A stretch of 64,000 bases of DNA, taken from the NCBI GenBank assembly GCA_945861275.1, contig CAMATZ010000017.1, positions 9,753 through 73,752 of the forward strand. Reading direction: 5' to 3'. Position 1 is the first letter of the stretch; every line of letters starts with the position of its first letter. Positions 1,709 to 28,322 of the stretch are shown piece after piece. The notes beneath the pieces are model-generated. The model made no database searches. It was not told the origin of the DNA and worked only from the letters and a program-made list of their open reading frames with translations. Made by a program: the position numbers and the translations under genes. Origin of the DNA: Bordetella parapertussis (lineage in GTDB: Bacteria; Pseudomonadota; Gammaproteobacteria; Burkholderiales; SG8-41).

Positions 1709-2314
1709 TCAATCCCTCTTTTCATCCAACAGTGACGTCTCCTGCGACGGACGAATTGTCAGCCGCGTGAACGGCAGCATGCGTTTGAACACGTTGTCGC
1801 GGTCCCAGAAATGGTGCTTCAGCGCCGCGCCGACATGGATGATCAATAGCAGAATCAACGCATTGCCCATCACTACATGCGTGTCATGCAATAAATTGGT
1901 CAGGGTTTTGCTCAGCAGCGGAAAATGCGGCACTTCAAACAGGCCGAACCAGAGCGTCGGAATGCCGTCGCGGTCCGTCGATACCCGCAGCCATCCGCTA
2001 AGCGGCAGACCAAGCATAAGTGCATAGAACAGGAAATGACTCGCATGCGCTGCCCGGCGTTCCCACGCCGGCATCGCACCCGGCAATCGCGGCACGGGAT
2101 GCATCAGTCGCCACACGATGCGGAAAACGGTCAGCAGCAGCACTATCAAGCCGAACGACTTGTGCAGCTGATAGAGCGCTAACTTGTCCGGGTTGCTCTC
2201 TGGCAGGTCGTGCATGTATTTGCCGACAATGAGCAAGCCAACGATCGCGACGGCGATCAGCCAGTGCAATGTCATGGCGATGGCGCCGTATCGAGTGGCG
2301 GAGATTTCCGTCAC
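1709..2314 (-). CDS. cytochrome b561 family protein
   Basis: 201 aa, four predicted TM helices, conserved His residues (HWLIAV..., ...HH). AGGAGA RBS upstream of a GTG start. Confidence 0.7.
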   Translation of the reverse strand: MTEISATRYGAIAMTLHWLIAVAIVGLLIVGKYMHDLPESNPDKLALYQLHKSFGLIVLLLTVFRIVWRLMHPVPRLPGAMPAWERRAAHASHFLFYALMLGLPLSGWLRVSTDRDGIPTLWFGLFEVPHFPLLSKTLTNLLHDTHVVMGNALILLLIIHVGAALKHHFWDRDNVFKRMLPFTRLTIRPSQETSLLDEKRD

Positions 2315-2671
2315 GCAAGTCTCCTAATTGTGGCTCAAAATGGAAGCGCTTCGTGCGGGCGCTCATGCTACGCTATTGTGCGCATAATTGCCGAACGCCG
2401 CTACCTGTCGTACTGGGGAAGCAACGAGGCCTGCGGCGAATTGTGCGCGGTTGACCGTTTGCGGTACGGCGGGTAGATTGCCTGTTCGTGTCAAGTGGTG
2501 TTTGAAATCCTCATTCCCAAGGCGATTCCATTGGCCCAGCCGTCCAGCGCCCGCCGTTTCGCGAGGACCACGTCGGCAGCCTACTCACCGTGGACGGCTG
2601 GCGGCGCAAGCTCGCGCCTGATGTCGCGCTGGCTGTGTGGAGAAGTGCATAGAAGCATACGGGGGATCTTC

Positions 2672-3661
2672 ATGACGATTAATTGTTGGCGTAGCTCTGC
2701 ACTCGCGGTATCGGCCGCAGGCGCACTTTGGCTCACGGCTGTCATTCCGGCGCATGGCCAGGAGTATCCGGCCAAGCCGGTGCGCATCATCGTGCCGCTT
2801 GCCCCCGGCGGGATGGCCGACCTGCTGTCGCGCGCGCTCGCGCAGAAGATGCCTGCTGCGACCCGGCAGCCGCTGATTGTGGAAAACCGCACCGGCGGCG
2901 GGGGAGTGATCGGGGCCGAGGTTGCCGCTAGGTCGCCGCCCGATGGCTATACGCTGTTCGCCGGATTCCACGCCACCAACGCGATACTCCCGCACCTCGT
3001 CGCCAAATTGCCGTACGACGCGGTAAAGGATTTCAGCCCGATCATCCTGATGGCGGCTGTGCCGAACGTGCTGGTGGTGCATCCCTCCGTCCCGGCGCAG
3101 TCGGTGAAGGCGTTGATCGCGCTCGCCAAGTCGAGGCGGGGCGAGTTAACGTATGCCTCGCAGGGCGTCGGCAGCTCGGGCCATATCGCCGGCGAATTGT
3201 TCAAGCTGATCGCCAAGGCCGACATCGTGCATGTGCCCTACAAGGGCGCCGCGCCGGCGCTTCAGGACCTGATGGGCGGCCACGTCATGATGATGTTCGA
3301 CATCATGACATTCGCGCTGCCCAACATGCGCTCCGGCCGGGTGCGCGCGCTTGCGGTCGCAACAGCCGAGCGGGTTCCGGTCGCGCCCGATCTGCCGACG
3401 ATGGCGGAAGCCGGTTTGCCGGGCATAGAAGGCGGCGCGTGGTTTGCGCTGTTCGCGCCGGCGGCAACGCCGCGCCCGATCATAGACTGGTGGAACCGGG
3501 AGGCGCGCCGCGCGTTTTCCGAGCCCGATGTGCGCGAGCGGTTCGTATCGCAAGGCGCAGTGTTGCCGTTGGGCACGCCAGAGGCGCTGGGCGCCCACGT
3601 CGCTGCGGAAACTCAGCGCTGGGGCCAAGTCATCCGCAGCGCCGGCATCAAGCTCGAGTAA
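2672..3661 (+). CDS. Bug/TctC-family substrate-binding protein
   Basis: ATG at 2672 begins a signal peptide, then YPAKPVRIIVP...GG..D. Conserved YKGAAPA and PDLPT.AEAG.PG motifs. Confidence 0.75.
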   Translation: MTINCWRSSALAVSAAGALWLTAVIPAHGQEYPAKPVRIIVPLAPGGMADLLSRALAQKMPAATRQPLIVENRTGGGGVIGAEVAARSPPDGYTLFAGFHATNAILPHLVAKLPYDAVKDFSPIILMAAVPNVLVVHPSVPAQSVKALIALAKSRRGELTYASQGVGSSGHIAGELFKLIAKADIVHVPYKGAAPALQDLMGGHVMMMFDIMTFALPNMRSGRVRALAVATAERVPVAPDLPTMAEAGLPGIEGGAWFALFAPAATPRPIIDWWNREARRAFSEPDVRERFVSQGAVLPLGTPEALGAHVAAETQRWGQVIRSAGIKLE

Positions 3662-7673: not shown

Positions 7674-8995
7674 GCGCCCTGACCGTCGGCATTGCACTAT
7701 TCGCAGGGATGCTGATACTGATGGCGTTGCGCGTGCCGATCGCGATCGCCATGTTCATCGCGGGCGCAATCGGTTATGCGGTGCAGGCAAGCCCGGATGC
7801 GCTGCTCAACCATCTTAAGGGCTTGGCCTATGCGCGCCTGTCGGTCCACGACTTGTCGGTGATCCCGCTGTTCCTGTTGATGGGCCAGTTCGCCACGCAG
7901 GGCGGCCTGTCGAAAGCGCTGTTCGGCTTGGCGAATGCACTGATCGGCCACCTTCGCGGCGGGATGGCGATGGCGGCGATACTCGCCTGTGCCGTTTTCG
8001 GCTCGATCTGCGGCTCCTCGGTTGCGACGGCGGCTACCGTGACGCAGGTCGCGTTGCCCGAAATGCGCCGGCACGGCTACTCCGGCCGGCTGGCCACCGC
8101 AACGCTAGCCGCCGGCGGCACACTCGGCATCCTGATCCCGCCGTCAGTGGTGCTGGTGGTTTACTGCATCCTCACCGAGCAGAACATTGCAAAGCTGTTC
8201 GCCGCCGCATTCATACCCGGCTTAATCGCAGCGGCGCTGTACCTCGCCGCAATCGCGATCTACGTAAAGTTATATCCGGATCACGGGCCCGCCACCGAGC
8301 GCCATAGCCGTGCCGAGCTGCTCGCCGCTTTGCGCGGCGTGTGGCCGGTCATGGCCATCTTTTTGTTGATGTTCGGCGGCATTTACGGCGGATGGTTCAC
8401 GCCGACCGAAGGCGCTGCGGTGGGCGCTGCGAGCACGCTGGTCGTCGCGCTCGCCATGCGCGAGCTCGATACCGCAGGCCTGATGCGCTGCTTCTACGGC
8501 ACTGCCGTGACCACCGGCATGATCTTCATGATTTTTCTCGGCGCCGACATGCTCAACTCGGCGCTCGCGCTGTCGCAGATGCCGGCGCAATTCGCCAAGG
8601 CCGTCGCTGCCAGCAACCTGCCTCCGCTCGCAGTAGTGCTCGGCATACTCGCGTTCTATATCCTGCTCGGTTGTGTGATGGACGAACTGGCGATGATACT
8701 GCTGACCATACCCATCCTTTTTCCCGCAGTGATGGGTCTGGACCTGTACGGGCTGGGCGCCACGCACAAGGCGATCTGGTTCGGCATCCTGGTGTTGTGC
8801 GTGGTCGAAGTCGGGCTGATCGCGCCGCCGGTTGGACTCAATGTCTACGTCGTGAACAGCTACGCGCGCGACGTGCCGATGGCTGAGACCTATCGCGGTG
8901 TGATTCCATTTCTTGCCGCTGACGCCGTGCGCATCACGCTGCTCATTACCTTCCCGGCGCTGAGCCTGTGGCTGGTCGGTGTGCTGGTACCTTGA
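7670..8995 (+). CDS. dctM: TRAP transporter large permease (DctM family)
   Basis: ATG at 7670 overlaps the dctQ stop. ~441 aa polytopic membrane protein with DctM-family motifs. Confidence 0.8.
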   Translation: MSALTVGIALFAGMLILMALRVPIAIAMFIAGAIGYAVQASPDALLNHLKGLAYARLSVHDLSVIPLFLLMGQFATQGGLSKALFGLANALIGHLRGGMAMAAILACAVFGSICGSSVATAATVTQVALPEMRRHGYSGRLATATLAAGGTLGILIPPSVVLVVYCILTEQNIAKLFAAAFIPGLIAAALYLAAIAIYVKLYPDHGPATERHSRAELLAALRGVWPVMAIFLLMFGGIYGGWFTPTEGAAVGAASTLVVALAMRELDTAGLMRCFYGTAVTTGMIFMIFLGADMLNSALALSQMPAQFAKAVAASNLPPLAVVLGILAFYILLGCVMDELAMILLTIPILFPAVMGLDLYGLGATHKAIWFGILVLCVVEVGLIAPPVGLNVYVVNSYARDVPMAETYRGVIPFLAADAVRITLLITFPALSLWLVGVLVP

Positions 8996-9007
8996 GTCAG
9001 ACGCTAA

Positions 9008-9150
9008 TGAGCCGCTGCGCAATGCTTCGCGGATCAAGATGTTGAGGAAAACAGCGGCGCTAGGCGAAAATTCACGCGATTGACTGCGCGCCTGTCGCGG
9101 GATAGATTGCCGGTTGACGAAAAATGATGTTAGAAAACCCTATACCCACA
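9008..9150 (+). repeat. ~140-bp intergenic repeat, copy A. Carries a 7-bp inverted repeat GCCGCTG..CAGCGGC and a sigma70-like promoter TTGACT-N16-GATAGATT
   Basis: More than 90% identical to 13876-14016. A partial third copy lies at 16716-16770. Confidence 0.6.
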
Positions 9151-9208
9151 AGCAGGAATATTACTCCGACCCCCAAGGGCCTTTGTCATTTTGTCAGGGA
9201 CTACTAGG

Positions 9209-10222
9209 ATGAAAACTTCGTCTCAGAATGCAGCCGGGTTGGATTTTGCCTCGCGGTTAATCAGTGCGCTCGTGAGCGCAGTACTCATCGCGCTGCTTAC
9301 GCACGGTAGCGCAGCGCTGAGTCAGGCGTATCCGTCCAAACCGGTACGCATCCTCTCAGGACAGCCACCGGGTGGTGCGACCGATCTGTTTGCGCGCATG
9401 GTCTCGCAAAAACTGAACGAAGTCTGGAAACAACCTGTGATCATCGAGCATCGTTCCGGCGCATCGGGCTCGATCGCCGTGGAGCTGACCGTCAAATCGC
9501 CGCCAGACGGTCACACTCTGGTGTTCGCCACCTCGGGACAGATCGTGATCAACCAGCATCTCCTGAAACTTAACTATGACCCGATCGCCGATCTTGCGCC
9601 GGTGGCGTTTCTCGTACACACCTGCATGCTGCTGGTGACTCACCCTTCGGTTCCCGCCAAATCCGCCAGGGAGCTGATCGCGCTGGCAAAAGCTCAGCCC
9701 GGCAAGCTCAACTTCGGTTCGGGCGGTAACGGCGCAATCACGCACCTTGCCGCCGAGCTGTTCATGTCGCTCACCGGCACACGCATGACGCACATTCCGT
9801 TCAAGGGCGCGGGCCCGAGCATGGTGGCACTGATGTCAGGAGACATCGATTTCACGTTTGGTTCGGTACCTGCCACACTGAGCCAGGCCAAGGCCGGACG
9901 AGTGCGCGCCTTGGGGGTATCGACAACGAAGCGAACGCAGGCCTGGCCTGATCTCCCGACGCTATCTGAAACCGGCGTGCCCGGTTACGATATGACCAGC
10001 TGGTACGCCTTCTTCGGTCCATCCACGCTGCCGAAGGACACGGTCGCCCGTATTCATGCCGATATCGGGCGCATTGCCGCGCAACCGGAGTTTCAGGAGC
10101 GCCTGTTGAATGAGGGTGCGGACCACGAGGCGATGACGCACGAACGCTTTGCCCAATTCATCCGTACCGAATCCGCACGCTGGGCGAAAGTCATACGCGA
10201 GCGCAATATCCGCGCGGAGTGA
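9209..10222 (+). CDS. Bug/TctC-family substrate-binding protein
   Basis: Signal peptide, then YPSKPVRI, GG.TD, FKGAGPS and PDLPTLSETG.PGY motifs. An alternative start exists at 9191. Confidence 0.75.
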   Translation: MKTSSQNAAGLDFASRLISALVSAVLIALLTHGSAALSQAYPSKPVRILSGQPPGGATDLFARMVSQKLNEVWKQPVIIEHRSGASGSIAVELTVKSPPDGHTLVFATSGQIVINQHLLKLNYDPIADLAPVAFLVHTCMLLVTHPSVPAKSARELIALAKAQPGKLNFGSGGNGAITHLAAELFMSLTGTRMTHIPFKGAGPSMVALMSGDIDFTFGSVPATLSQAKAGRVRALGVSTTKRTQAWPDLPTLSETGVPGYDMTSWYAFFGPSTLPKDTVARIHADIGRIAAQPEFQERLLNEGADHEAMTHERFAQFIRTESARWAKVIRERNIRAE

Positions 10223-14031: not shown

Positions 14032-14313
14032 ATGTACTCCAACAAGGGCCTGCCGCATGTGTATCTGCCGGATCACACGGTAAACAGGGTGTTCCTGCTA
14101 AGCGGCACACCCGGTGATTGGGCGTTGGGTGAATTCTGGAGGGCGATCGCGAACGAAACACGCGCGCGGCCCGATCATCTGGTGACCGGCAAGCCGTGCG
14201 TGCTGGCGACACCGCGCGAAGCGCGCGCCACGCTGGAGGCGACACTGGCGATCGAGTTGTCGGTGAAAAGCGTTCCGCCAGTGCGGCTGTCTCTGGCGGG
14301 TTATTGTGTTTAA
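14032..14313 (+). CDS. hypothetical small protein (93 aa). The reading frame starts at the 3' edge of repeat copy B
   Basis: ORF only. No recognizable domain and no clear RBS. Confidence 0.25.
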   Translation: MYSNKGLPHVYLPDHTVNRVFLLSGTPGDWALGEFWRAIANETRARPDHLVTGKPCVLATPREARATLEATLAIELSVKSVPPVRLSLAGYCV

Positions 14314-15274
14314 AATATCAATAAAAACAATAAGTTATGTAACTTCCGCGCTGACGCTTTGTTCGGTGGCGCAAGCCTATCCCACCAAACCCATCCGCAT
14401 GATCGTAGGCTACCCGCCCGGCGGCGGCACCGACATCGTGGCGCGTGTGATGGCGCAGAAACTCACGGAGAATTTCGGTCACACGGTGGTTGTCGATAAT
14501 CGCGGTGGCGCCACCGGCAACATCGGCACAGAAATCGCCGCGCGCGCGACGCCCGACGGCTACACGATCTTGATGGGCAATGTTGCGCCGAATGCGATCA
14601 ATGTCAGTTTGTTCAAGACGATACCGTTTGATCCGGTGAAGGATTTCGCGCCCATCAGTTTGGTGGCGCTAACGCCGAATATCCTGGTGGTGCATCCGTC
14701 GTTGCCGGCGAAAAGTGTCAAAGATCTGATCGTGCTGGCGAAGGCCAAACCCGGTACGTTCAATTATGCCTCGGCGGGCATCGGCAGTTCATCGCATCTG
14801 GCGGGCGCGCTGTTCGGCATCCTCACAGGCACGAACATCGTGCATGTGCCGTACAAAGGCGGCGGGCCGGCGATGGTCGATGTGCTGTCGGGGCAGATAC
14901 AACTTTATTTTGCCACCATGCCCGCGGCGATGCCGCATGTTAAATCCGGCAAGCTGCGTCCGGTGGCGGTCACCACTGAGAAACGTTCGCAGACGCTGCC
15001 GGAGTTTCCCACCATCGCCGAGTCCGGCGTCACCGGCTACGAAGCGGCAACCTGGTACGCGTTACTCGCACCGGTGCAAGTGCCACGCGCGATCATCACG
15101 CGTTTGCATGGCGAGGTGGTAAAAATACTGGCGGCGCCGGACCTGCGCGACAAACTCAAGAGTCAGGGCTTCGAGCCGGTGGGCAACACGCCGGATCAAT
15201 TCGCGGCCTACATCAAATCCGAAATCGCCAAGTGGGGCAAGGTGATACGCGACGCGGGGATCCGGGCGGAGTGA
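14306..15274 (+). CDS. Bug/TctC-family substrate-binding protein
   Basis: GTG start, signal peptide ...CSVAQA, then YPTKPIRMIVGYPPGGGTD, YKGGGPA and PEFPTIAESGVTGYE motifs. Confidence 0.7.
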   Translation: MFKISIKTISYVTSALTLCSVAQAYPTKPIRMIVGYPPGGGTDIVARVMAQKLTENFGHTVVVDNRGGATGNIGTEIAARATPDGYTILMGNVAPNAINVSLFKTIPFDPVKDFAPISLVALTPNILVVHPSLPAKSVKDLIVLAKAKPGTFNYASAGIGSSSHLAGALFGILTGTNIVHVPYKGGGPAMVDVLSGQIQLYFATMPAAMPHVKSGKLRPVAVTTEKRSQTLPEFPTIAESGVTGYEAATWYALLAPVQVPRAIITRLHGEVVKILAAPDLRDKLKSQGFEPVGNTPDQFAAYIKSEIAKWGKVIRDAGIRAE

Positions 15275-15557: not shown

Positions 15558-16538
15558 TCACGGCGCTTTCAACCCCGCCGCCCGCGCCACTTCATCAAAC
15601 GTTACCAGCATTTCGCGCAGTATCTTGTCGAACTCCTCCGGCGTGGTCGGTGCGGGGGTAAAGTCTATCGCTGCCATCTGCTTTTTAATGTCGGGCATGT
15701 CGAGCACGCGTGCGACATCCTTGCTGATCTTGTTCACGATATGGCGCGGCGTTTTCGCGGGCACCAACAACGCATGTGAGGCATCACGGCGGAAGCTGGG
15801 CAGAATCTCCAGCACAGTGGGAACATCCGGCAACAAGAGCGAGCGTTTCGGCGTCACCACCGCCAGTGCCAGCAGCCGACCGTCCCGGATCATACCTAGC
15901 GCGGGGCCCAAGCCGGGAATGCCGAATTGTATGCGCCCGGAGAGAATCTCGATCAGCATTTCCGATTGACCCTTGAACGCGACATGCGTGCCCGTTATTC
16001 CGGCGGACATGCGAAACCGCTCGGTGGTCATGTGAGTGCCGCTACCGGCGCCGGCTGAACCGTACAGAATCTTGCCGGGCCGCTCATGCGCGAGCGCAAT
16101 CAACTCTTTGACCGACTTGACACCCAGTGACGGCGCAACCACCAATGCGCTGGTTGAATAGCCGATCTGCGTCACGCTGGTGAAGTCGTGCAGCGGGTCG
16201 TATCCCGCATTGGATCGCAGCACGGCGTTGATGGCAAACGACGCCGATGTGAGCAGGATGGTGTACCCGTCAGGTGTGGCTTGAGCCGCTATCACCGTGG
16301 CTATCGAACCGCCGGCGCCGGTGCGATTTTCCAGTACCACAGGCTGTCCCCACAGTTCCGCGAGTTTGGGTGCCAGCAAACGCGCCGAGATATCCAGCGG
16401 GCCGCCGACGGAAAAGCCGTTGAGGATACGCACCGGTCGCGCGGGCCAGGCCTGAGCGGCGCCTGACGACGCGGTTTGCGCGCTTGCGATCGGCGCCAGA
16501 CCCGCAACCAGCAACAAATACAAAACCCGTGTCATCAT
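15558..16538 (-). CDS. Bug/TctC-family substrate-binding protein
   Basis: Signal peptide, then WPARPVRILNGFSVGGPLD, FKGQSE and PDVPT motifs. Confidence 0.75.
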   Translation of the reverse strand: MMTRVLYLLLVAGLAPIASAQTASSGAAQAWPARPVRILNGFSVGGPLDISARLLAPKLAELWGQPVVLENRTGAGGSIATVIAAQATPDGYTILLTSASFAINAVLRSNAGYDPLHDFTSVTQIGYSTSALVVAPSLGVKSVKELIALAHERPGKILYGSAGAGSGTHMTTERFRMSAGITGTHVAFKGQSEMLIEILSGRIQFGIPGLGPALGMIRDGRLLALAVVTPKRSLLLPDVPTVLEILPSFRRDASHALLVPAKTPRHIVNKISKDVARVLDMPDIKKQMAAIDFTPAPTTPEEFDKILREMLVTFDEVARAAGLKAP

Positions 16539-16715: not shown

Positions 16716-16770
16716 GAGGGATAAATTGCTGTTTGATGAAAGGGAGTATTTCAAAACCCTATCGCCAACG
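16716..16770 (+). repeat. partial third copy of the promoter/leader part of the ~140-bp repeat (TTGACC-N16-GATAAATTGCTGTTTGA...AAAACCCTAT)
   Basis: Matches the 3' ~50 bp of copies A and B. Lies immediately upstream of the pilin-like gene. Confidence 0.4.
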
Positions 16771-16813
16771 TGACGTGTTGTATAAACCTCATTGCTTACT
16801 CAAGGAGGAGACG

Positions 16814-17524
16814 GTGCGTAAGCAAACTGGTTTTACCTTGATTGAGATCGCGATCGTGCTCGTGATCATCGGTCTGCTGCTCGGCGGCGTGCTGATGGGC
16901 CAGGAACTGATCCAGGGGGCGCGGGTGCGTAACCTCGCTTCGACGCAAGACGGGATCAAGGCGGCATTTTTCGGCTTTCAGGATCGTTTCCGCGCTCTGC
17001 CTGGTGATTATTCGGGTGCGCTGGCCGTAACCAACATCCCCGGCATGGTTGCGAACGGCAGCTGTACTGGCGCCGTAAACGGCGGCGGCAACGGCGACGG
17101 CCAGATTGCATTAGCGGGTGAATCAATCATCGCGTGGGAACATCTGTCGCGGGCGGGCTTCCTCACCGGCGCATATGTTTGCGCGGGCGCCTCGCCCGAC
17201 ACAAGCAATACGCCGACCAATGTTTACAATGTCAGGATGAAGCTCATTCATGACGGTGTCTACGGCATAGCAAGCGGCGGAAGCGCACGTCACAACCTGA
17301 AGACCGGCGGCGCGATTCCGGTGGCGCTCGTCGCCGAACTCGACCGCAAGATCGACGACGGAATGCCTTATACCGGCAGCTTCCGGTTTTCGGCCTTCGG
17401 GGGCGGAGTTACTGCGCCCACTGAAAACAATGCCATCACTGGCTGCACCACCGGCACTACCACTGCTGGCACCTGGAATGGTGGCAACGGCGTCACCAAC
17501 TGCGGCGGCGCCAGCCTGCTTTGA
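16814..17524 (+). CDS. prepilin-type N-terminal cleavage/methylation domain protein (type IV pilin/pseudopilin-like), Gly-rich C-terminus
   Basis: AAGGAGG RBS, GTG start. Leader VRKQTG|FTLIEIAIVLVIIGLL is a classic class III signal. No adjacent pilus assembly genes. Confidence 0.6.
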   Translation: MRKQTGFTLIEIAIVLVIIGLLLGGVLMGQELIQGARVRNLASTQDGIKAAFFGFQDRFRALPGDYSGALAVTNIPGMVANGSCTGAVNGGGNGDGQIALAGESIIAWEHLSRAGFLTGAYVCAGASPDTSNTPTNVYNVRMKLIHDGVYGIASGGSARHNLKTGGAIPVALVAELDRKIDDGMPYTGSFRFSAFGGGVTAPTENNAITGCTTGTTTAGTWNGGNGVTNCGGASLL

Positions 17525-17802: not shown

Positions 17803-19332
17803 TCAGGCGACGTGATGTCTCTGGCGCAGAATCTGCGCAGCTTGCGCCAGCACCGCCAGCTTGGCTTCGGCGGTTCGGTCCGAGTTTAGCGGATTGTCCG
17901 CAAAAGTAGCAAAACCGCAATCCGGTGTTATCAGCAGGCGCTCGGCTCCGAACAATCCGATCGCACGTTCAACGTGTGCCACGACTGAATCTACTGTTTC
18001 CACGTGCGCATGCTTTTGGTTGCAGGCGCCCACGCCGATGCGCATATCATCCGGTAACACTGCGAGGATTTCCATTTCCCCGGCGCGCGGCGTGCAAAGT
18101 TCCAGCAGCAACGTCCCCACCTGCAATTGCCCCAAGGTGTCTACCAGCGGGCGATAATCGCCCGATAGCGCCTTGCTTTCGTCCGCTGTCCAATTGCCCC
18201 GGCACATGTGCAGCGCGATGCGTTCACGCGGGAACCCTGCGGTGACCGCATTGATAAGGTCCCGCGCGAAAGCCAATTCCACCGGGCCTTCACTTTTAGC
18301 GGACAACGCGCCGCACATGAAACTGCGTTGATTAGCCGGTCCGCTAAACACGATTTCGGATAGCACCGGCTCGTCGAGCTGCACCAGTGCGGCGCCCGCA
18401 GCGAGCAGACAGGCGATCTCCTCGCGCAGCACCCGTATGATATCGCGCGCGAGATCCTCGCGGTTGGCGTAGGCGCGATCGGAAATACATTCCATCCACA
18501 TCGTGCGGGTCAGCAAGTAGGGTCCAGGTAATGCCACCTTGACCGGGAGATCAGTTAGCGTTCGCACAAATTCGACCTCATGGACGGCGATGCCGCGACT
18601 GCGCCCCAACGGCCCAAACACAGCCGGGTGGCGCACGTCTCCCGCTGGCACGTCGAGCGCACGCAATTCGCGTTCGAATTCCTCGGGATCGTCCACCAGA
18701 GGCAGTAAATCCGTTAACGGGATCAACTGGCAGTTGTCCAGGCGCGACGCGACAAAGCTTGAATAACTGTCGCGACGCTGCTCGCCGTCAGTCACCACGT
18801 CGGCGCCGGCGCGCAGTTGTGCGTTGATCGCCAGTCGCACTGCGTCATCGGCGGTAGACTGGAAAGCGGCTTCGTCGAGCCGCCCCTCCATGTGTTCATG
18901 CACCGCTTGCAACATCCAGCGCGGACGCGGCCAACTGCCAATACCCATTACCGAAAGCGGACGGACTGGGGGCGCTGGCGCGGGCCGCGGAAATTCGAGG
19001 AGTGGTTTGACAACGACAAGTTCGACACCGGGGTTGACGGTGCGCGCCGGTGTAGCGCCGGCTTTGCGTTCGGAATACTTGCCCTTGGCCACCAGGAAGC
19101 TACGCTGCCTGTCATGCTTGATAAACGAGAGCAGTTCGTTGCCTGTCATTCGACACCATGCGGGCAAATCTTCGTCAACGGAAATTTCCGTTGAGCGGAT
19201 TTCCAGCAAGCCTTCGCGCTCGAGCGGGTCGATGTGTTTACGGATGAGTAGCAGCAAGCCGTTGCCGCAATCCAGGTCGCCGCCGTCAAAGCTCACGTCG
19301 GGCAGATGGGGGTGTTGTGCAGGCTGTGTCAT
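17803..19332 (-). CDS. fusion protein: N-terminal TusA-like domain (CGNG instead of CPxP) plus cobalamin-independent methionine synthase (MetE) C-terminal-like catalytic domain
   Basis: GAGGAG RBS. N-terminal D.GDLDCGNG...DLPAWCRMTGNELL matches the TusA fold signature. Residues ~120-509 resemble the MetE C-terminal / UroD-like domain. Confidence 0.6.
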   Translation of the reverse strand: MTQPAQHPHLPDVSFDGGDLDCGNGLLLLIRKHIDPLEREGLLEIRSTEISVDEDLPAWCRMTGNELLSFIKHDRQRSFLVAKGKYSERKAGATPARTVNPGVELVVVKPLLEFPRPAPAPPVRPLSVMGIGSWPRPRWMLQAVHEHMEGRLDEAAFQSTADDAVRLAINAQLRAGADVVTDGEQRRDSYSSFVASRLDNCQLIPLTDLLPLVDDPEEFERELRALDVPAGDVRHPAVFGPLGRSRGIAVHEVEFVRTLTDLPVKVALPGPYLLTRTMWMECISDRAYANREDLARDIIRVLREEIACLLAAGAALVQLDEPVLSEIVFSGPANQRSFMCGALSAKSEGPVELAFARDLINAVTAGFPRERIALHMCRGNWTADESKALSGDYRPLVDTLGQLQVGTLLLELCTPRAGEMEILAVLPDDMRIGVGACNQKHAHVETVDSVVAHVERAIGLFGAERLLITPDCGFATFADNPLNSDRTAEAKLAVLAQAAQILRQRHHVA

Positions 19333-19361
19333 GTCTTTCTCCTCGTTTGCTGGCGATGGCT

Positions 19362-20159
19362 TTACGCGTATTCAATTTCTGGAGGCGATTGCCCGGGCGA
19401 CTCCACCCCCGCGATTTCGCTTCCATACACTTCATGCAGGTCGCGATCAGTGAAGCCGGCCACAGGCATATCCACAACAATACGGCCACTCTTCAGCCCG
19501 ACCACTCGATCCGCGTAATGCCGCGCGAAATGCGGTTGATGCAGACTGCAAATCACCGCTACGCCCTCAGCGTCTGCATGACAAATCGAACGCAACAATT
19601 CCAGAATGCCAGCGCCTATGCGAGGGTCGAGGCTTGCCACGGGCTCGTCGGCGATGATAACGTCAGGCTGTTGTGCCAGCGCGCGCGCAATCGCTACGCG
19701 TTGCTGCTGTCCGCCCGATAAGGTATCAGCCCGCTGCGCGGCCTGCGTCAGCAGGCCGACACGCTCCAGGCATTCCAGCGCCAGCAGCAAATCGGCGCGC
19801 GTAAAACGCCGCAGCCAGCCGCGCCAGGCCGCCGTGTAACCCAGCCGGCCTGCCAGCACGTTTTCAAGTGCGGTCAGCCGGCTGACCAGGTTGAACTGCT
19901 GGAACACCACCGCGATATGGCGGCGCTGACGGCCTTTGAAGGCGGCCACGTCAAGTCCGTTCAGGTGCGAAGAGCCTGCGTCCATCGGCGTCAGACCCGC
20001 AAGACAACGGAACAACGTGGACTTGCCGGCGCCGCTCGGCCCTAGCACCGCCAAGAATTCGCCACGTTGTACGCGAAAACTCACACCTTCGATCGCGGGC
20101 CGGCCGCTGAATGCCTTACCTGCACCACGTACCTCGAAGAGGGCTGGTGTACTGGTCAT
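19362..20159 (-). CDS. phnC: phosphonate-type ABC transporter ATP-binding protein (PhnC family)
   Basis: Walker A GPSGAGKST, LSGGQQQRVAIARAL signature, PhnC-like overall. Overlaps phnE by 4 nt. Confidence 0.75.
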   Translation of the reverse strand: MTSTPALFEVRGAGKAFSGRPAIEGVSFRVQRGEFLAVLGPSGAGKSTLFRCLAGLTPMDAGSSHLNGLDVAAFKGRQRRHIAVVFQQFNLVSRLTALENVLAGRLGYTAAWRGWLRRFTRADLLLALECLERVGLLTQAAQRADTLSGGQQQRVAIARALAQQPDVIIADEPVASLDPRIGAGILELLRSICHADAEGVAVICSLHQPHFARHYADRVVGLKSGRIVVDMPVAGFTDRDLHEVYGSEIAGVESPGQSPPEIEYA

Positions 20160-20974
20160 ACCAGACGCTTTCGCAACCAGCTACTCAATTGATCGAGCGC
20201 AGTCACGACGATCAGAATCAGCGCGATGATGGTAAACAAGCGGGAAAAATCCAGCAGGTCCATGCTGTTCTTGAGTTCCATCCCGATCCCGCCGGCACCA
20301 ACCACGCCCAGTACAGTGGAGGCGCGGACATTGAACTCCCACCAGAATAATGTGGTCGAGAGCAGCACCGGGAGGACATCGGGCAGTAACGCATACACAA
20401 TCGCGGTATAACGTCCAGCGCCGGTGGTACGCACTGCTTCCAGCGGACCCAGTTGCGCATTCTCAATATGATCGGCGAAAAATTTGGCCGCGCTGCCCCA
20501 GGTATGCAAGGCAATCCCTAGCACGCCGGCGAACGGCCCCAGGCCCACGGCCGCGACGAACAACAGCGCAAATACAAAGGAATCGATGCCGCGCAGCGCG
20601 TTCAGAAACCAGCGCGCCGGGTAGTAGAGGCGCGGGAAAGGCGTAATGTTGCGGCTGGCCAGCACCGCCATTGGAATCGCCAGCACTGTCGCGAACGTGG
20701 TGCCGATGGCCGCCATCGCCACCGTCTCGGCGATGCGCAGCGTGAACAGCGGTAACTCATCCAGCCTCGGGGGCCATGCCTGCGCCAGCCAGTGACCGAG
20801 CTTGGGCAAGCCGGTCACCAGCTTTAGTGGATCAATCTGCGCCAGTTGCCAGCAAATGACGTAAAAGGCGAAGATGACTATGAGCATCGCGGCCAGCTTC
20901 CAGCGACCGCGTGCGTTGCTGCGCAGCCCGGCTGCAAGTAGAAGCCGGGCGCGCTCGGCGCCTTCGGTAGACAC
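20156..20974 (-). CDS. phnE: phosphonate-type ABC transporter permease (PhnE family)
   Basis: 272 aa, six TM. PhnE-family C-terminal motifs. Confidence 0.75.
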   Translation of the reverse strand: MSTEGAERARLLLAAGLRSNARGRWKLAAMLIVIFAFYVICWQLAQIDPLKLVTGLPKLGHWLAQAWPPRLDELPLFTLRIAETVAMAAIGTTFATVLAIPMAVLASRNITPFPRLYYPARWFLNALRGIDSFVFALLFVAAVGLGPFAGVLGIALHTWGSAAKFFADHIENAQLGPLEAVRTTGAGRYTAIVYALLPDVLPVLLSTTLFWWEFNVRASTVLGVVGAGGIGMELKNSMDLLDFSRLFTIIALILIVVTALDQLSSWLRKRLV

Positions 20975-21127
20975 TCGCTACCACTTTGGCTTAATTTTGC
21001 CCACCGCGATGCCTGCCTTTTCGACAGCCGCGTAAGACGCATGGCGAGCGGCTACGAATCCGGTGTAGCGGGTCGGTAGCAGTGTCTTGGCCTGCTCCAC
21101 CGAAATCGAGGTAAGAATTTTTTGCAC
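20975..21127 (-). pseudogene. remnant of a PhnD-family substrate-binding protein gene (last ~50 codons only)
   Basis: Frame ...TGFVAARHASYAAVEKAGIAVGKIKPKW* ends where phnE starts and resembles PhnD C-termini. It is bounded upstream by a stop codon. Only ~180 bp remain before the next gene. Confidence 0.4.
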
Positions 21128-21309
21128 CTATGCGCTGAATGCTGCTGTTTTTCCCAATATCAGACAAAGTCTACGGCAGAAGGCGGCAACTTACAACAAA
21201 GCGCTGTAGGCAGTGAATTTGGAAAAAGCCGGCTACGCATTCACCCATTGCAGATGCGCTGCGAGCGCATCGAAACTGTAATCGAGGCCACGCGGCGTGT
21301 GTGGTGGGG

Positions 21310-22458
21310 TCAATCGCGCGCTGCTGGCAGGCTGGTTTTACGCATGAGAAAACCACTGCCGAACAACATGGCCGCACTCGACAAAAATACCGTTGAGAAC
21401 CCGAATGCCGCGCCCACGCCACTGAAGACGACTGGAACCACCCACTGCACGAGGTTATAGGCGGTTCGCAGCAGACCCAATGATTCCGCCACGCGGCCCG
21501 GCGGGGTCAGCACGTAAATCAACGACATCGACAACGGGTTGGCGCAGCCCACCCCAAGTCCCAGCAGGAAGGCGATGGCCGCCAGCGCATAGGGATTCGC
21601 CACAAACGGCAGCAACACGAAGGTAACTGCCGAGACAAAAACGGCAGTGGTCAGAATCCCGGCTTCAGTCCATTTTTTCATCAGCAATGGAATGACGCTG
21701 CGGATCACAAAAGCTGCCCCCGCCACTACCCCGATGATGGTGCCTATCGCAGAGGCCGAAAGGCCGAGCGAATGGCCATAGATCGGGAAATAGAACGAAA
21801 ATAAATTTTGGGCCGAGTGTATGACGGCGCTGATTATAAAAATCGTGCGCAGACCCGGCATGCGCCAAAGTTCGAGTACGCTGCCGCGTGTTTCTTTGCC
21901 GGCAGGCGCAGCCGTTTTGGGCAGCAATCCCGGCTTAAACCAAAATACCAGAATAGGCGGTACGGAAAATGCCGCCAGCACCCAGAAGACCTGCGCATGG
22001 CCGATGTAATCGATCGCGAATCCCGTGATGACCGGCCCGATACCATTGGCGAGTGACCACCCCATGCTGAGCAAGGCAAAGTTAGCGGTACGTTTTCCCG
22101 GTCCGCCGATGCCGCCTATGCTGGCCTCCAGCGGAATCATGAAAACCAGATGCGTCAATCCCAAAGCAATGCATGACACATAGAGCACCGCAATACCGGG
22201 AAACAGCGGCGGCAAAAGCAACGCTAACCCCATGCCAATAACGCCGATGAGCAGAGGCAGCCGTGGCCCGACACGATCCACAAATTGTCCAACGGCAATC
22301 GCCAACAGCATCGGAAACACCGAGTAGAGCGCTACCAATACGCCTATCGCGAACTGATTTGCACCCAATTCCAGGGCATACAGCGACACCGCAATGCGGC
22401 TGCCATTGAAGCCGATCTGGCTCAGAATGCCCATTAAAATAATCAGGTAAATCGTCAT
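21310..22458 (-). CDS. MFS transporter
   Basis: ~383 aa from MTIYLIILMG..., 12 predicted TM segments. Confidence 0.65.
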   Translation of the reverse strand: MTIYLIILMGILSQIGFNGSRIAVSLYALELGANQFAIGVLVALYSVFPMLLAIAVGQFVDRVGPRLPLLIGVIGMGLALLLPPLFPGIAVLYVSCIALGLTHLVFMIPLEASIGGIGGPGKRTANFALLSMGWSLANGIGPVITGFAIDYIGHAQVFWVLAAFSVPPILVFWFKPGLLPKTAAPAGKETRGSVLELWRMPGLRTIFIISAVIHSAQNLFSFYFPIYGHSLGLSASAIGTIIGVVAGAAFVIRSVIPLLMKKWTEAGILTTAVFVSAVTFVLLPFVANPYALAAIAFLLGLGVGCANPLSMSLIYVLTPPGRVAESLGLLRTAYNLVQWVVPVVFSGVGAAFGFSTVFLSSAAMLFGSGFLMRKTSLPAARD

Positions 22459-22648
22459 TTGCGCAAACGGGACAATAGCCGTGAAAACGATTGCGTCTGT
22501 GTCCGGCGCAAATCTTTTGGCCACTGGATAGTGGCATCGTGGTGTGCATATTTTAGCACTTTGAACATTCGCAACAGGTTTGCGCGCGGGCAATCGCGGC
22601 GGATTCGGCGAGGTTAAGCGTAGACTTGCACATTCACAGGAACCACCC

Positions 22649-24088
22649 ATGAGCATCACGTCTCAAACTACGCGACCAATGTCCATCACCGGCCCGCTGG
22701 CGCGATTTGCAAGCGAATGGCGGTGGGAGGATATCCCTGCCACCGTGCGTCACGAGGCCAAACGTTCATTGCTGAATTTTTTCGCGGTGGCGCTGGGCGG
22801 CTGCAACGACCCTACCATTGCGAAGGCAGCTGCCGTGCTGCACCGTTTTCGCGCCAGTGAAGTGGCGACGGTGATAGGCCGCAGCGAACGCACCGACTTG
22901 CTCAATGCCGCTGCGCTCAACGCTATGAGCGCCAACGTCTATGACTTCGACGATACCCACATTCCCACCATCATTCATCCGACGGCGCCGGTGGCCTCTG
23001 CGCTGCTGGCGCAGGCGCAGTCCGCACCGATCACCGGGATGCAATGGCTGCTCGCTTTTGTGCTGGGTGTCGAAGTTGAATGCCGCATCGGTAACGCGAT
23101 TTCACCCGGCCACTACAACCGGGGCTGGCACATTACATCGACCTGTGGCGTGTTTGGTGCTGCCGCTGCGAGCGGACGCGCACTGGGACTGGACGCGCAG
23201 GGCATGGCCTGGGCCTATGGCAACGCTGCGGCGCAAGCCTGCGGTCTGGTGGAAACGCTGGGCACCATGTCCAAGAGCGTGAGCGTAGGCAACGCCGCCC
23301 GCAACGGGCTGTTGTCAGCGATTCTCGCGCAGGCGGGCTTTGATGGGCCGGCGGCGCCGCTCGAAGGCGTGCGTGGTTTTCTTAACGTCACCGGCGAAAA
23401 TCCCGACTTTGCGAGCGTGATCGAAGGCTTGGGGCAACGCTGGGAATTGACCAACAATACCTACAAGCCTTATCCCTGTGGCGTAGTGCTTAATCCGGTG
23501 ATTGAAGCCTGTCTACGTCTGCACGAGGACAGCGCACTTGAGTTGCCTTGCGTCGAGCGTATCGAGGTCACCGGCCACCCGTTGTTGCGCCAGCGTACCG
23601 ACCGCCCCGGCGTGCGCACGGGACGTGAATCGCAGGTCAGCGTGCAACATGCCGTACCCATCGCATTGATGACAGGACGGGCCGGGTTGGAAGAATTTAG
23701 CGATGCTGCGGTGTCGCTACCGGCAGCACAGGCGTTGGGGCGCAAGGTCTGCATGATCGACGACCCATCGCTGTCCATTGATGCAGCGCGCGTGGTGATT
23801 ACGCAAACGGGCGGCAAGACGTTAATGGCTGCTATCGACTTCGCGCGCGGCAGCCTCGACAAGCCGCTGACTGACCGCGAGTTGGAAGTGAAGCTGATGG
23901 AACTGTGCCGGTATGGCCGCTCCGGCTGCGCCGCAGAACCGCTGATCGATGCGGTGTGGGCGTTGGATCGCGCGCACGATGCGGGCGCGCTGATGGTCCT
24001 GGCGCAGGGTGCGGCACACCGAGTAGCCATCGAACACCCGGGATCCTTACTGTGCGATTACCGGAATCTCGATAAACGAAGGCGTTGA
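22649..24088 (+). CDS. MmgE/PrpD family protein (2-methylcitrate dehydratase-like)
   Basis: AGGA RBS. ~479 aa with PrpD-family sequence throughout. Confidence 0.75.
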   Translation: MSITSQTTRPMSITGPLARFASEWRWEDIPATVRHEAKRSLLNFFAVALGGCNDPTIAKAAAVLHRFRASEVATVIGRSERTDLLNAAALNAMSANVYDFDDTHIPTIIHPTAPVASALLAQAQSAPITGMQWLLAFVLGVEVECRIGNAISPGHYNRGWHITSTCGVFGAAAASGRALGLDAQGMAWAYGNAAAQACGLVETLGTMSKSVSVGNAARNGLLSAILAQAGFDGPAAPLEGVRGFLNVTGENPDFASVIEGLGQRWELTNNTYKPYPCGVVLNPVIEACLRLHEDSALELPCVERIEVTGHPLLRQRTDRPGVRTGRESQVSVQHAVPIALMTGRAGLEEFSDAAVSLPAAQALGRKVCMIDDPSLSIDAARVVITQTGGKTLMAAIDFARGSLDKPLTDRELEVKLMELCRYGRSGCAAEPLIDAVWALDRAHDAGALMVLAQGAAHRVAIEHPGSLLCDYRNLDKRRR

Positions 24089-27026: not shown

Positions 27027-27120
27027 GCATGGTTGGCCGAGTGGCCAGAGTAACCAAGGACGCCTGCCTGTAGAGCAGGATTCGTAAAGAACAACGGTGG
27101 TTCAAATCCATCACCATCCA
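27027..27120 (+). tRNA. tRNA-Tyr(GUA)-like, class II; probably degenerate (C2:C71 mismatch, over-long D-loop)
   Basis: Hand fold: GAGTGGCCAGAG D-loop resembles tRNA-Tyr. Anticodon stem CCTGC/GCAGG, loop CTGTAGA, long variable arm, T-arm GGTGG-TTCAAAT-CCATC. Confidence 0.35.
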
Positions 27121-27122
27121 CC

Positions 27123-27199
27123 GCCCCGCTGGCGGAACAGGCATACGCGCCGGTCTTAGAAACCGGTTTTTCCGAGTTCGAATCTCGGGTGGGGCACCA
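27123..27199 (+). tRNA. tRNA-like, anticodon UAG (Leu) in a class-I (short variable arm) body
   Basis: Acceptor GCCCCGC/GTGGGGC, disc A, encoded CCA. Anticodon arm CCGGT-CTTAGAA-ACCGG. T-arm CCGAG-TTCGAAT-CTCGG. Confidence 0.5.
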
Positions 27200-27361
27200 A
27201 GTTTTTGCAGTAACCGCGCCGGCATAGCGACCGGGGAACGCGGATTGATCTTTAACAATATGGATGTGGTTAACAGTCTGTTGTCGCCCGGCGAGGCGGG
27301 CAGCCGTGTCTTCGGGCAGGGCGGCTTTGTTCCTCGCCGGGCAGGGCAGCAGATGTATTAA

Positions 27362-27437
27362 GCAGACATAGCTCAGTTGGAAGAGCGCGACGCCGCCAGC
27401 GTCGAGGCCGCGAGTTCGAGACTCGCTGTCTGCTCCA
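27362..27437 (+). tRNA. tRNA-Gly(GCC)-like with C32C33 in the anticodon loop (CCGCCAG)
   Basis: Near-identical architecture to bacterial tRNA-Gly(GCC). Perfect acceptor and T-arm. Loop TTGCCAA changed to CCGCCAG. Confidence 0.6.
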
Positions 27438-27440
27438 TAC

Positions 27441-27515
27441 GAACCGTTCGACTTCGGGTGAAGTCTCGAGCCTTTCAAGCTCGCAAGATGGGTTCAACTC
27501 CCATACGGTTCGCCA
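27441..27515 (+). tRNA. tRNA-Glu(UUC)
   Basis: Perfect 7-bp acceptor, loop CTTTCAA, 4-nt variable region, disc G, encoded CCA. Confidence 0.7.
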
Positions 27516-27521
27516 GTTTAA

Positions 27522-27609
27522 GGAAGGCAATCCCGGCGTGGGCTGGGCGCGGTCTTGAAAACCGATGGAGCCGCGAGGCTTGGAGTTCGACTCTACCTGC
27601 CTTCCGCCA
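27522..27609 (+). tRNA. tRNA-Ser(UGA)-like, class II; weak T-stem, possibly a pseudogene
   Basis: Acceptor GGAAGGC/GCCTTCC, anticodon loop CTTGAAA, long variable arm. T-stem has only 3 of 5 pairs. Confidence 0.4.
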
Positions 27610-27616
27610 AGAAATT

Positions 27617-27692
27617 ATCCCCGTAGCTCAGCGGATAGAGCAGCGGATTACGAATCCGCAGGCCGCAGGTTTAAATCCTGCCGGGGATGCCA
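27617..27692 (+). tRNA. tRNA-Arg(ACG)
   Basis: Acceptor ATCCCCG/CGGGGAT, D-arm GCTC-AGCGGATA-GAGC, loop TTACGAA, T-arm GCAGG-TTTAAAT-CCTGC, CCA. Confidence 0.7.
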
Positions 27693-27769
27693 GCATGCGA
27701 CGCGGCTGCAGTATGGCCCGATCGGACCTCACACCGATCGTACCGGCAACGGTAGCGTCGACCACAAAG

Positions 27770-27862
27770 GGAGAGATGGCCGAGCGGTTTAAGGCGCTTG
27801 CCTGCTAAGCAAGAGCTGTCTGAAAAGATGGCGCCAGGGTTCAAATCCCTGTCTCTCCGCCA
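27770..27862 (+). tRNA. tRNA-Ser(GCU), class II
   Basis: Acceptor GGAGAGA/TCTCTCC, D-arm GCC-GAGCGGTTTAA-GGC, loop CTGCTAA, 21-nt variable arm, CCA. Confidence 0.7.
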
Positions 27863-27876
27863 GCGTTGTTTTGCAG

Positions 27877-27947
27877 TGCCCTTGCCGCTCCTCCTCCGCG
27901 GCAAAGGGTGTTTTGCCGCGGCGCAATGCCGCGGTTTTTTTGGGGCG
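27877..27947 (+). terminator. two consecutive hairpins; the second (GCCGCGGCGCAATGCCGCGG followed by TTTTTTT) is a canonical rho-independent terminator
   Basis: GC-rich stems; the second is followed by a T7 run. Located inside the tRNA array. Confidence 0.5.
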
Positions 27948-28019
27948 TTAGCTTAGTAGGCCGAAAGCATCTGATTGTCGATCAGAAGATCGCGGGTTCA
28001 ACTCCCGCACGCCTCGCCA
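27942..28019 (+). tRNA. tRNA-Asp(GUC)-like
   Basis: Acceptor GGGGCGT/ACGCCTC, loop TTGTCGA, T-arm GCGGG-TTCAACT-CCCGC, disc G, CCA. Confidence 0.55.
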
Positions 28020-28035
28020 GTTTTCTGTCTGAACG

Positions 28036-28071
28036 GATGGCTTCTGCGTTCGAATCGCAGGTGTCGTACCA
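28036..28071 (+). pseudogene. orphan tRNA 3' fragment (T-arm CTGCG-TTCGAAT-CGCAG, acceptor 3' strand, ACCA) with no matching 5' half
   Basis: Perfect T-arm and CCA end, but no complementary 5' acceptor strand upstream. Confidence 0.3.
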
Positions 28072-28072
28072 T

Positions 28073-28150
28073 GCCCCTGTAGCTCAACGGAACCAGAGCA
28101 CGCGGCTTCTACCCGCGCTGATGCGGGTTCGAATCCTGCCAGGGGCGCCA
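28073..28150 (+). tRNA. tRNA-Arg(UCU)
   Basis: Acceptor GCCCCTG/CAGGGGC, anticodon arm CGCGG-CTTCTAC-CCGCG, T-arm GCGGG-TTCGAAT-CCTGC, CCA. Confidence 0.65.
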
Positions 28151-28157
28151 CATTACC

Positions 28158-28233
28158 GGTTCGGTAGCTCAGCAGGCAGAGCAACGGGCTCATAACCCGG
28201 AGGTCCCAGGATCGTAGCCTGGCCGAACCACCA
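28158..28233 (+). tRNA. tRNA-Met(CAU). It has the initiator-like CGGG/CCCG anticodon stem and CTCATAA loop but a G1-C72 pair and an odd T-loop ATCGTAG
   Basis: The hand fold closely parallels E. coli tRNA-fMet in the anticodon arm and variable region. The T-loop lacks T54 and A58. Confidence 0.5.
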
Positions 28234-28240
28234 CCATTAC

Positions 28241-28317
28241 GCTGTCGTAGCTCAGTTGGCAGAGCAGCCGCCCTGTAAGCGGAAGCGCGTCCGTTCGATT
28301 CGTGACCGACAGCACCA
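28241..28317 (+). tRNA. tRNA-Thr(UGU)-like with C32C33 (loop CCTGTAA) and a degenerate T-arm; likely pseudogene
   Basis: Perfect acceptor GCTGTCG/CGACAGC and Thr-like D-arm. The T-stem does not pair. Confidence 0.4.
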
Positions 28318-28322
28318 GTAAC

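Follow-up and report, generated by a model that had tools for sequence, protein, structure and literature searches.

We analysed a 64,000-nucleotide stretch of Bordetella parapertussis DNA (assembly GCA_945861275.1, contig CAMATZ010000017.1; the whole stretch is called the window hereafter), in which a gene for a 509-residue protein joining a TusA-like domain to a MetE-like domain follows two transporter genes and the remnant of a third on the reverse strand. Comparison with related genomes indicates that these genes are probably the cut-off end of a seven-gene operon, and the make-up of that operon suggests that the fusion protein may be a zinc enzyme fed by a sulfur relay. The fusion gene and its parts are listed here in window coordinates, with the evidence for each in brackets.

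17803..19332, reverse strand: fusion gene, TusA-domain/MetE-like, 509 amino acids, stop codon included (open reading frame list, Pfam and NCBIfam matches, AlphaFold model)
19063..19332, reverse strand: N-terminal TusA-fold domain, residues 1-90 (profile against the Protein Data Bank (PDB), Foldseek)
18958..19062, reverse strand: low-confidence linker, residues about 91-125 (predicted local distance difference test (pLDDT) of the model; variable in alignments)
17806..18957, reverse strand: MetE-superfamily catalytic barrel, residues about 126-509 (alignments to 3RPD and MetE structures, fold search, residue invariance)
19339..19344, reverse strand: Shine-Dalgarno sequence GAGGAG, 6 nt before the fusion ATG and within the 29-nt spacer that follows phnC (read from the sequence)

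A reading of this DNA made earlier from the letters alone (the sequence-only reading) had described the protein as a TusA-like/MetE-like fusion, and both assignments held. As a single sequence the protein scored 20.7 bits against the TusA family (PF01206) in Pfam, under the gathering score of 28.6. A profile built from the first 90 residues of 28 family members matched E. coli TusA (1DCJ and 3LVJ) over the whole domain when compared with the PDB (E 3e-12). In the profile alignment, C22 of the fusion (in 'LDCGNG') falls on the catalytic Cys19 of E. coli TusA (in 'LRCPEP'), and C60 (in 'AWC') falls on the second TusA cysteine. The AlphaFold model of residues 1-90 (pLDDT 85) has the order beta-alpha-beta-alpha-beta-beta; its top PDB match in Foldseek was 3LVJ_C, the TusA of the IscS-TusA complex (template-modelling score (TMt) 0.89, root-mean-square deviation 1.3 A), followed by YeeD of a thiosulfate importer. 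The domain thus passed a test that the sequence-only reading had set for it, and model and profile together place the active-site cysteine at the start of helix 1 of a TusA fold. The motifs 'DLDCGNG' and 'DLPAWCRMTGNELL' are present as had been described, with C22-G-N-G where TusA proteins have CPxP. Neither G23 nor G25 varies within the fused family, and CG also stands in place of CP in the free TusA encoded by the operon described below.

The C-terminal part of the protein resembles the catalytic barrel of the methionine synthases. Pfam found Meth_synt_2 in the fusion protein (E 1e-22) and no N-terminal folate-binding barrel (Meth_synt_1), and a database search returned more than 4000 homologues. 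The full-length AlphaFold model (pLDDT 86.6, predicted template-modelling score 0.77) matched MesD (3RPD), the C-terminal MetE barrels of several organisms and 1YPX, with TMt values of up to 0.84 for MetE and MesD. Between the two domains, pLDDT fell below 50 at residues 93-101, and no secondary structure was predicted at residues 86-127. HMMER alignments to 3RPD and MetE identified the zinc ligands of the barrel as H375 and C377 (in H-M-C), E411 and C472, and equated S133, E184 and D320 with Ser22, Glu73 and Asp188 of 3RPD, which bind the carboxyl and amino groups of homocysteine (Price et al., PMC7857596). These seven residues, which include the metal and substrate ligands whose loss would have told against the earlier assignment, do not vary among 144 fused homologues, nor does C22, and at least 90% of these proteins keep C60; the barrel carries the full set of zinc (His-x-Cys, Glu, Cys) and homocysteine (Ser/Glu/Asp) residues of the MetE superfamily. 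The models and alignments show that the fusion consists of a TusA-fold sulfur-carrier domain with a catalytic cysteine, a flexible linker and a MetE-type zinc barrel.

Upstream of the fusion gene lie the following features.

19362..20159, reverse strand: gene for an ATP-binding subunit of the PhnC family (TIGR02315, 272.8 bits against a cut-off of 266.1)
20156..20974, reverse strand: gene for a permease of the PhnE family, overlapping phnC by 4 nt (TIGR01097, 269 bits against a cut-off of 216.7)
20975..21154, reverse strand: 3' stub of a substrate-binding protein gene of the HtxB-like/PhnD family, its last 57 codons and stop (tblastn, translation, limit of nucleotide homology)
20978-21127, reverse strand: short open reading frame of 49 codons within the stub (open reading frame list)
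21155..21309, reverse strand: junction between the gene at 21310-22659 and the operon fragment, without homology to the operons of relatives (blastn boundaries)
21310-22659, reverse strand: major facilitator superfamily (MFS) transporter gene, the upstream neighbour of the operon fragment (open reading frame list)

Both transporter subunits exceed the cut-offs of the equivalog models for the PhnCDE phosphonate transporter, in keeping with the earlier identification of PhnC and PhnE; they are 65% (PhnC) and 77% (PhnE) identical to their orthologues in an intact Massilia operon. The fusion ATG follows the phnC stop codon after 29 nt on the same strand, as had been noted to within a nucleotide. 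The presence of a Shine-Dalgarno sequence in this spacer, and the absence of a terminator-like hairpin from it, suggest that the fusion gene is co-transcribed with phnE and phnC.

We compared 80 genome loci, each with a close relative of the fusion; several of the apparent absences in the counts that follow are contigs ending near the fusion gene. The fusion was present in all 80, a gene for a 120-residue DsrE protein (dsrE1) in 68, a free tusA in 66, a PhnD-family binding protein in 46, a permease in 45 and a second dsrE-like gene in at least 34. The usual order is tusA-dsrE-[binding protein-permease-ATPase]-fusion, and the full order of the family is (dsrE-like)-tusA-dsrE(120 residues, DsrE3-like)-[HtxB-like binding protein-permease-ATPase]-tusA::metE-like fusion-(dsrE-like). 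The solved structure nearest to DsrE1 is 3MC3, a DsrE/DsrF-like protein of S. solfataricus, with which its 'YVC' cysteine is aligned. A survey of the phylogenetic distribution, which the sequence-only reading had called for, found the tusA-dsrE-fusion triad also in Reyranella (an alphaproteobacterium), a planctomycete, an Oculatellaceae cyanobacterium and a Dehalococcoidia metagenome-assembled genome; the transporter genes are absent from the last three of these. Clustering at 50% still left full-length fused representatives, at 47-61% identity. The suggestion of an uncharacterised sulfur-relay pathway is strengthened by the frequency of free tusA and dsrE1 and by the triad in these four loci of other lineages. 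Full-text searches of the literature found no publication on the fusion, on the operon or on the OsmC/rhodanese variant described below. The parts, namely a MetE barrel, TusA, DsrE and an HtxB-type importer, are known; their combination is new and widespread.

Some loci of the family showed further features. Upstream of tusA, a TTGC...N17...TAGACT promoter-like pair is conserved at about 30-60 nt in five loci (L012, L013, L015, L016 and L021), followed in the Duganella loci by a CCAAT-N7-ATTGG palindrome that is a candidate operator. Between dsrE1 and the fusion, one locus encodes a 179-residue membrane protein and a 505-residue secreted protein without a family match (L014, 5844-6383 and 6396-7913), and another encodes a secreted transglutaminase-like protein (L070, 6654-7883). 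LysR-type regulators were dropped as evidence, since they clustered in just 14 of the 80 loci at variable positions. N-terminal extensions of TusA in planctomycete-type loci had no recognisable domain and are probably over-extended open reading frames.

The closest relatives of the window copy (L009-L011 and L019), with fusion proteins 88% identical in amino acid sequence, have the order dsrE2-tusA-dsrE1-binding protein-permease-ATPase-fusion with all genes intact. Compared with these operons, the window lacks dsrE2, tusA, dsrE1 and most of the binding-protein gene. The binding protein of Massilia sp. TN1-12 matched the window by tblastn from 21154 to 20984 on the reverse strand, over residues 238-294 of 295 (72% identity, E 4e-19), so the PhnD remnant recognised earlier is real, with a match of 57 codons broken by an in-frame TAG at 21130-21128. 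This stub is all that the window keeps of a cognate PhnD (TIGR03431), and tblastn found no other PhnD gene, and no TusA or DsrE gene, in the 64 kb. By blastn, the window can be aligned with the operons of its closest relatives from 17803 to about 21140, with the onset of homology at about 21129-21142, and the match goes no further on either side. Homology that ends inside the binding-protein gene, set beside relatives with an intact gene order, indicates that the 3.3 kb in the window are probably the 3' end of a seven-gene operon; their junction with unrelated DNA lies 155 bp downstream of the MFS gene. By the same blastn boundaries, the native promoter region of the operon is absent from the window copy, and a simple, crude promoter scan found no sigma-70-like site on the reverse strand between 17400 and 22800.

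The cut appears to be recent. Measured against three relatives, the ratio of non-synonymous to synonymous substitution rates (dN/dS) was 0.06 for the fusion gene and 0.10-0.17 for phnE and phnC, and the dead stub itself gave 0.04-0.08. Because the stub has a dN/dS as low as that of the intact genes, the break is recent relative to the divergence from these relatives, which suggests that the operon was cut recently within the binding-protein gene. For the same reason, the intact frames of the three surviving genes are no evidence of function. As the alignments show, the importer encoded here has lost its binding protein, and neither tusA nor dsrE nor the native promoter is left in cis; the three surviving genes either are decaying or rely on partners encoded elsewhere. 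The sequence-only reading had treated a phnCE transporter that has lost phnD as a feature of the system. This does not hold, as an intact binding-protein gene is present in 46 of the 80 loci and the window copy is a recent truncation. Disruption of the operon is not confined to the window: in one locus a transposase gene lies between dsrE1 and the fusion (L029, 6994-7873), and in another an IS110-family element separates the binding-protein and permease genes (L169, 5278-6210).

It is conceivable that PhnC and PhnE without PhnD form a working unit, served by an orphan binding protein elsewhere and importing a small sulfur or selenium compound for the fusion enzyme; such a unit could be a partial duplicate that is supplied in trans with the TusA, DsrE and binding protein of a complete copy. 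All three open reading frames are full length with low dN/dS, the signals for translational coupling are intact, and the same arrangement occurs in other assemblies: the junction is 100% identical in two of them, although these may come from one and the same sample. In four Burkholderiales loci, moreover, the fusion gene is immediately preceded by an ABC transporter of the SsuA type (NitT/TauT family), and the flank that is available shows neither tusA nor dsrE (L066, 2188-5777; L071, 309-1385; L073, 2664-6218; L079, 536-1618). A related NCBIfam model, for a putative selenate-binding protein of the PhnD family, also gave a match, yet a weak one (75 bits against a cut-off of 250). However, a stub with an internal stop and a sudden loss of homology are the marks of a deletion or rearrangement and not of a designed architecture, and the equally low dN/dS of the stub means that the intactness of its neighbours shows only how recent the event was. 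As the native promoter region is gone and the 64 kb supply no binding-protein, tusA or dsrE gene, we consider a working PhnD-less unit unlikely.

The barrel of the fusion protein belongs to a wider group of enzymes. The barrel shares about 42-47% identity with unfused homologues, whose best-sampled group is annotated as Acidobacteriota. The unfused gene stands in a conserved three-gene unit encoding the MetE-like protein, an OsmC-like protein and a rhodanese (L089-L148 and others; for example L107:6998-8179, 8192-8746 and 8864-9646); in a separate set of 80 unfused loci, the OsmC-like gene was present in 65 and the rhodanese gene in 35. Six metagenome loci (L149, L152, L162, L164, L166 and L167) have a split form, tusA-dsrE-[TusA-like::OsmC-like, about 245 residues]-MetE-like (for example L152:1178-1924 and 1924-3069), in which the TusA-like domain shares 63% identity with that of the fusion protein. 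Where OsmC proteins carry 'CPV', the OsmC-like domain of the split form has 'SPV' and so keeps just one cysteine. Across the fused, split and unfused architectures, the zinc ligands, the homocysteine triad, an H-x-C-R-G-N-W motif and an F338-M339-C340 loop are invariant; in pairwise alignments, this loop lies where MesD and MetE are gapped or unrelated. These comparisons place the barrel in a clade of its own within the MetE superfamily, with the extra invariant F-M-C loop and HxCRGNW as its marks. The common denominator of the clade is a sulfurtransferase neighbour, either TusA/DsrE or OsmC with rhodanese, which is usual in the sampled loci.

Public databases annotate the fusion protein as a methionine synthase, although its clade falls far short of the cut-off of every curated model for these enzymes. 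Against the MetE model (TIGR01371) the fusion scored 64.4 bits where the cut-off is 929.95, and of the two MetE domains it has only Meth_synt_2. It scored 110 bits against PRK09121, which we take to be the MesD family (cut-off 392), and 153 bits against PRK04326 (cut-off 406); nor is a MesX (DUF1852) gene found next to it. De novo clustering of the neighbourhoods of both sets of 80 loci found neither MesX nor a corrinoid protein as a conserved neighbour. MetE shares with the fusion the fold of the catalytic C-terminal barrel and a zinc-thiolate active site, but it has in addition the Meth_synt_1 barrel, which binds polyglutamyl folate. The closer comparison is with MesD and the other core synthases MesA-D (3RPD; Price et al. 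2021, PMC7857596), which consist of a single MetE-type barrel of about 350-390 residues without the folate-binding barrel and share with the fusion the zinc ligands (H, C, E, C) and the Ser, Glu and Asp residues that contact homocysteine. MesD (3RPD) is both the best sequence match (E 2.4e-23) and the best fold match (TMt 0.79) of the fusion. It differs in being only about 22% identical; the fusion clade lacks the MesX neighbour and adds the F-M-C loop, HxCRGNW, the N-terminal TusA domain and the TusA/DsrE or rhodanese/OsmC neighbours.

An alternative is that the fusion is simply a core methionine synthase like MesA-D, independent of folate, and methylates homocysteine from a donor yet to be identified, with TusA and DsrE as accessories that, for example, keep the zinc-site thiols reduced or carry or generate the donor. 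The invariance of the zinc ligands and of the homocysteine Ser/Glu/Asp, the sequence and structure matches to MesD and MetE, and the public annotation all fit such an enzyme, and MesD is likewise without a known methyl donor (PMC7857596); our literature searches found nothing new on MesD or MesX since 2021. On the other side stand the scores far under the cut-offs of TIGR01371, PRK09121 and PRK04326 and the lack of a MesX, corrinoid-protein or folate-domain partner. Rfam scans found no riboswitch for S-adenosylmethionine, S-adenosylhomocysteine or B12 upstream of the operon in eight related loci and the window. Plain methyl transfer would also leave unexplained the extra invariant cysteine loop and the sulfurtransferase neighbours that are usual in three architectures. 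We consider a core methionine synthase likewise unlikely.

The identity of the missing binding protein was examined with the orthologues of 35 related loci and not with the stub in the window. The sequence-only reading had argued that the transporter is not a classical phosphonate system. That part stands, whereas the binding protein itself is HtxB-like and not of the PhnD type in the strict sense. In intact relatives it scored 152.6 bits against the PhnD model (TIGR03431, cut-off 261.1) and passed only the broad subfamily model TIGR01098. Its nearest solved relative is HtxB of P. stutzeri (5ME4, E 1.6e-80), to which the 35 orthologues are 43-49% identical over the full length. W52, which caps the ligand through a P-H...pi contact, is invariant in all of them, as are W68, P71-G73, T129, S130, R178, N205 and D206, and relative to HtxB they carry the substitutions N128S, F158H and M176F/Y. 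The orthologues therefore show the features of the HtxB-like subfamily of Adams et al. 2019 (about 50% identity, the Trp52 cap, R178/D206, N128S, F158H and M176F/Y), which those authors modelled and predicted to bind phosphite without discussing gene context (PMC6629693). These sequence features point to an HtxB-like protein, and not PhnD proper, as the missing component; its ligand may contain phosphorus (phosphite or hypophosphite) or be an isosteric oxyanion of sulfur or selenium, for instance sulfite, thiosulfate or selenite.

The likeness extends to the whole HtxBCDE importer of Pseudomonas stutzeri (5ME4; PMC6629693, PMC5700983), whose partner proteins are also of the PhnC/PhnE family. 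The operon described here differs in that it has no htxA or ptxD oxidase gene and is embedded in a sulfur relay; neither gene appeared in the neighbourhood clustering of the 80 loci. A second point of comparison is the uptake of thiosulfate by YeeE/YeeD (TsuA/TsuB; 8J4C, PMC11073785), in which a TusA-fold protein acts in direct partnership with an importer of a sulfur oxyanion. The link in our operon is by gene order only, its importer is an ABC transporter and not of the YeeE family, and YeeD keeps CPxP.

Sulfane sulfur can be transferred to thiophilic acceptors such as sulfite and cyanide. The operon might accordingly be a phosphorus system, in which phosphite or hypophosphite enters through the HtxB-like importer and is oxidised or activated by the relay and zinc enzyme, for example by passing sulfane sulfur to P(III) to give thiophosphate, which would be hydrolysed to phosphate. 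The kinship of the binding protein with HtxB, its retained W52, R178, D206, T129 and S130 and the substitutions of the predicted phosphite binders are what such a system would have, and a route of oxidation other than PtxD or HtxA would be needed where neither gene is found. But the transporter is optional (46 of the 80 loci, and none of the planctomycete, cyanobacterial and Dehalococcoidia loci), whereas tusA-dsrE-fusion is the constant core. The enzyme retains a homocysteine site that is needless for the oxidation of phosphorus, and some loci have the SsuA-type transporter, of the sulfonate family, instead. We judge this a very improbable explanation.

Taken together, these observations make us lean, with modest confidence, towards a truncated copy of this operon whose product is a relay-fed zinc thiol transferase and not a methyltransferase. 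Sulfane sulfur, as a persulfide or thiosulfonate, would be passed between cysteines from free TusA and DsrE to C22 of the TusA domain and then, probably by way of C340, to the zinc site. There it would meet a zinc-bound homocysteine-type thiolate, an isosteric cysteine persulfide or an activated homoserine, and the enzyme would make or break an S-S or C-S bond on a homocysteine-like substrate and would not carry out the methyl transfer from folate that MetE performs. In operons that have it, the ABC importer would bring in a small oxyanion shaped like phosphite or hypophosphite; among sulfur compounds, sulfite and thiosulfate are the obvious candidates. A Cys-to-Cys relay of this kind, from TusA/DsrE to the fusion, is suggested by the adjacency of the genes and by conserved cysteines in the proteins.

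Known TusA/DsrE relays (E. coli IscS-TusA-TusBCD, archaeal DsrE3A-TusA thiosulfate transfer and the sHdr-associated TusA/DsrE3; PMC11094781) share the pairing of a TusA-fold protein with an active cysteine and a small DsrE-family protein with a conserved cysteine, encoded by adjacent genes. They differ in their final acceptor, which is proposed here to be a MetE-like zinc enzyme and not a tRNA-thiolation enzyme, DsrC/DsrAB or sHdr, and in having CPxP in place of CGxG; the fused operons also have no IscS or rhodanese.

Several points weigh against a relay-fed thiol transferase. The homocysteine triad and zinc site are equally expected of an ordinary core methionine synthase. The fused operons contain no cysteine desulfurase or rhodanese gene, and tusA and dsrE are missing from the available flank of the four loci with an SsuA-type transporter. 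The change from CPxP to CGxG, in fused and free TusA alike, may alter the chemistry of TusA. The binding-protein pocket has retained the Trp cap for recognition of a P-H bond, a sign of phosphorus rather than sulfur. Moreover, the chemistry proposed for the fusion enzyme is deduced from gene context.

We would give any one specific reaction of the enzyme a slim chance at best. One such proposal is that the clade with the F-M-C loop comprises persulfide-dependent enzymes, independent of pyridoxal phosphate, that join relay sulfane sulfur to a four-carbon amino acid, and that the HtxB-like binding proteins serve importers that supply the relay with a sulfur oxyanion (sulfite or thiosulfate). The enzyme would then form homocysteine from activated homoserine, or would make or consume homocysteine persulfide or cysteine persulfide. 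We hold this to be a speculative and rather improbable extension of the relay-fed transferase. If true, inorganic sulfur would have a new path into the methionine branch, and the PtxB/HtxB family would gain a new class of substrate.

The gene occurs in thousands of genomes and metagenomes, among them those of Burkholderiales, Alphaproteobacteria, Planctomycetes, Cyanobacteria, Chloroflexi, Verrucomicrobia and Acidobacteria. Solving the reaction of the fusion would correct a widespread mis-annotation as methionine synthase, would add a terminal acceptor to the TusA/DsrE relays of ordinary aerobic heterotrophs and would test whether HtxB-like binding proteins truly bind phosphite. The copy in the window is of lesser value and serves mainly as a pointer to the intact system of its relatives.

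Other features of the window lie outside the operon fragment. Its downstream flank holds two genes for binding proteins of the TctC/Bug family and one for a type IV pilin-like protein with an N-terminal methylation motif (14306-15274, forward strand; 15558-16538, reverse strand; 16733-17524, forward strand), of which the pilin-like gene is convergent with the fusion gene. A flank with TctC/Bug binding proteins and a pilin-like gene is typical of Burkholderiales. Farther on, an array of about 19-20 tRNA genes of many specificities lies within 4 kb (27027-31153, forward strand), with an additional tRNA-Arg gene 7 kb away (38161-38236, reverse strand), and the GC skew is strongly positive from about 30 kb onwards. 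The array could be a tRNA island, or a piece of a mobile element or prophage.

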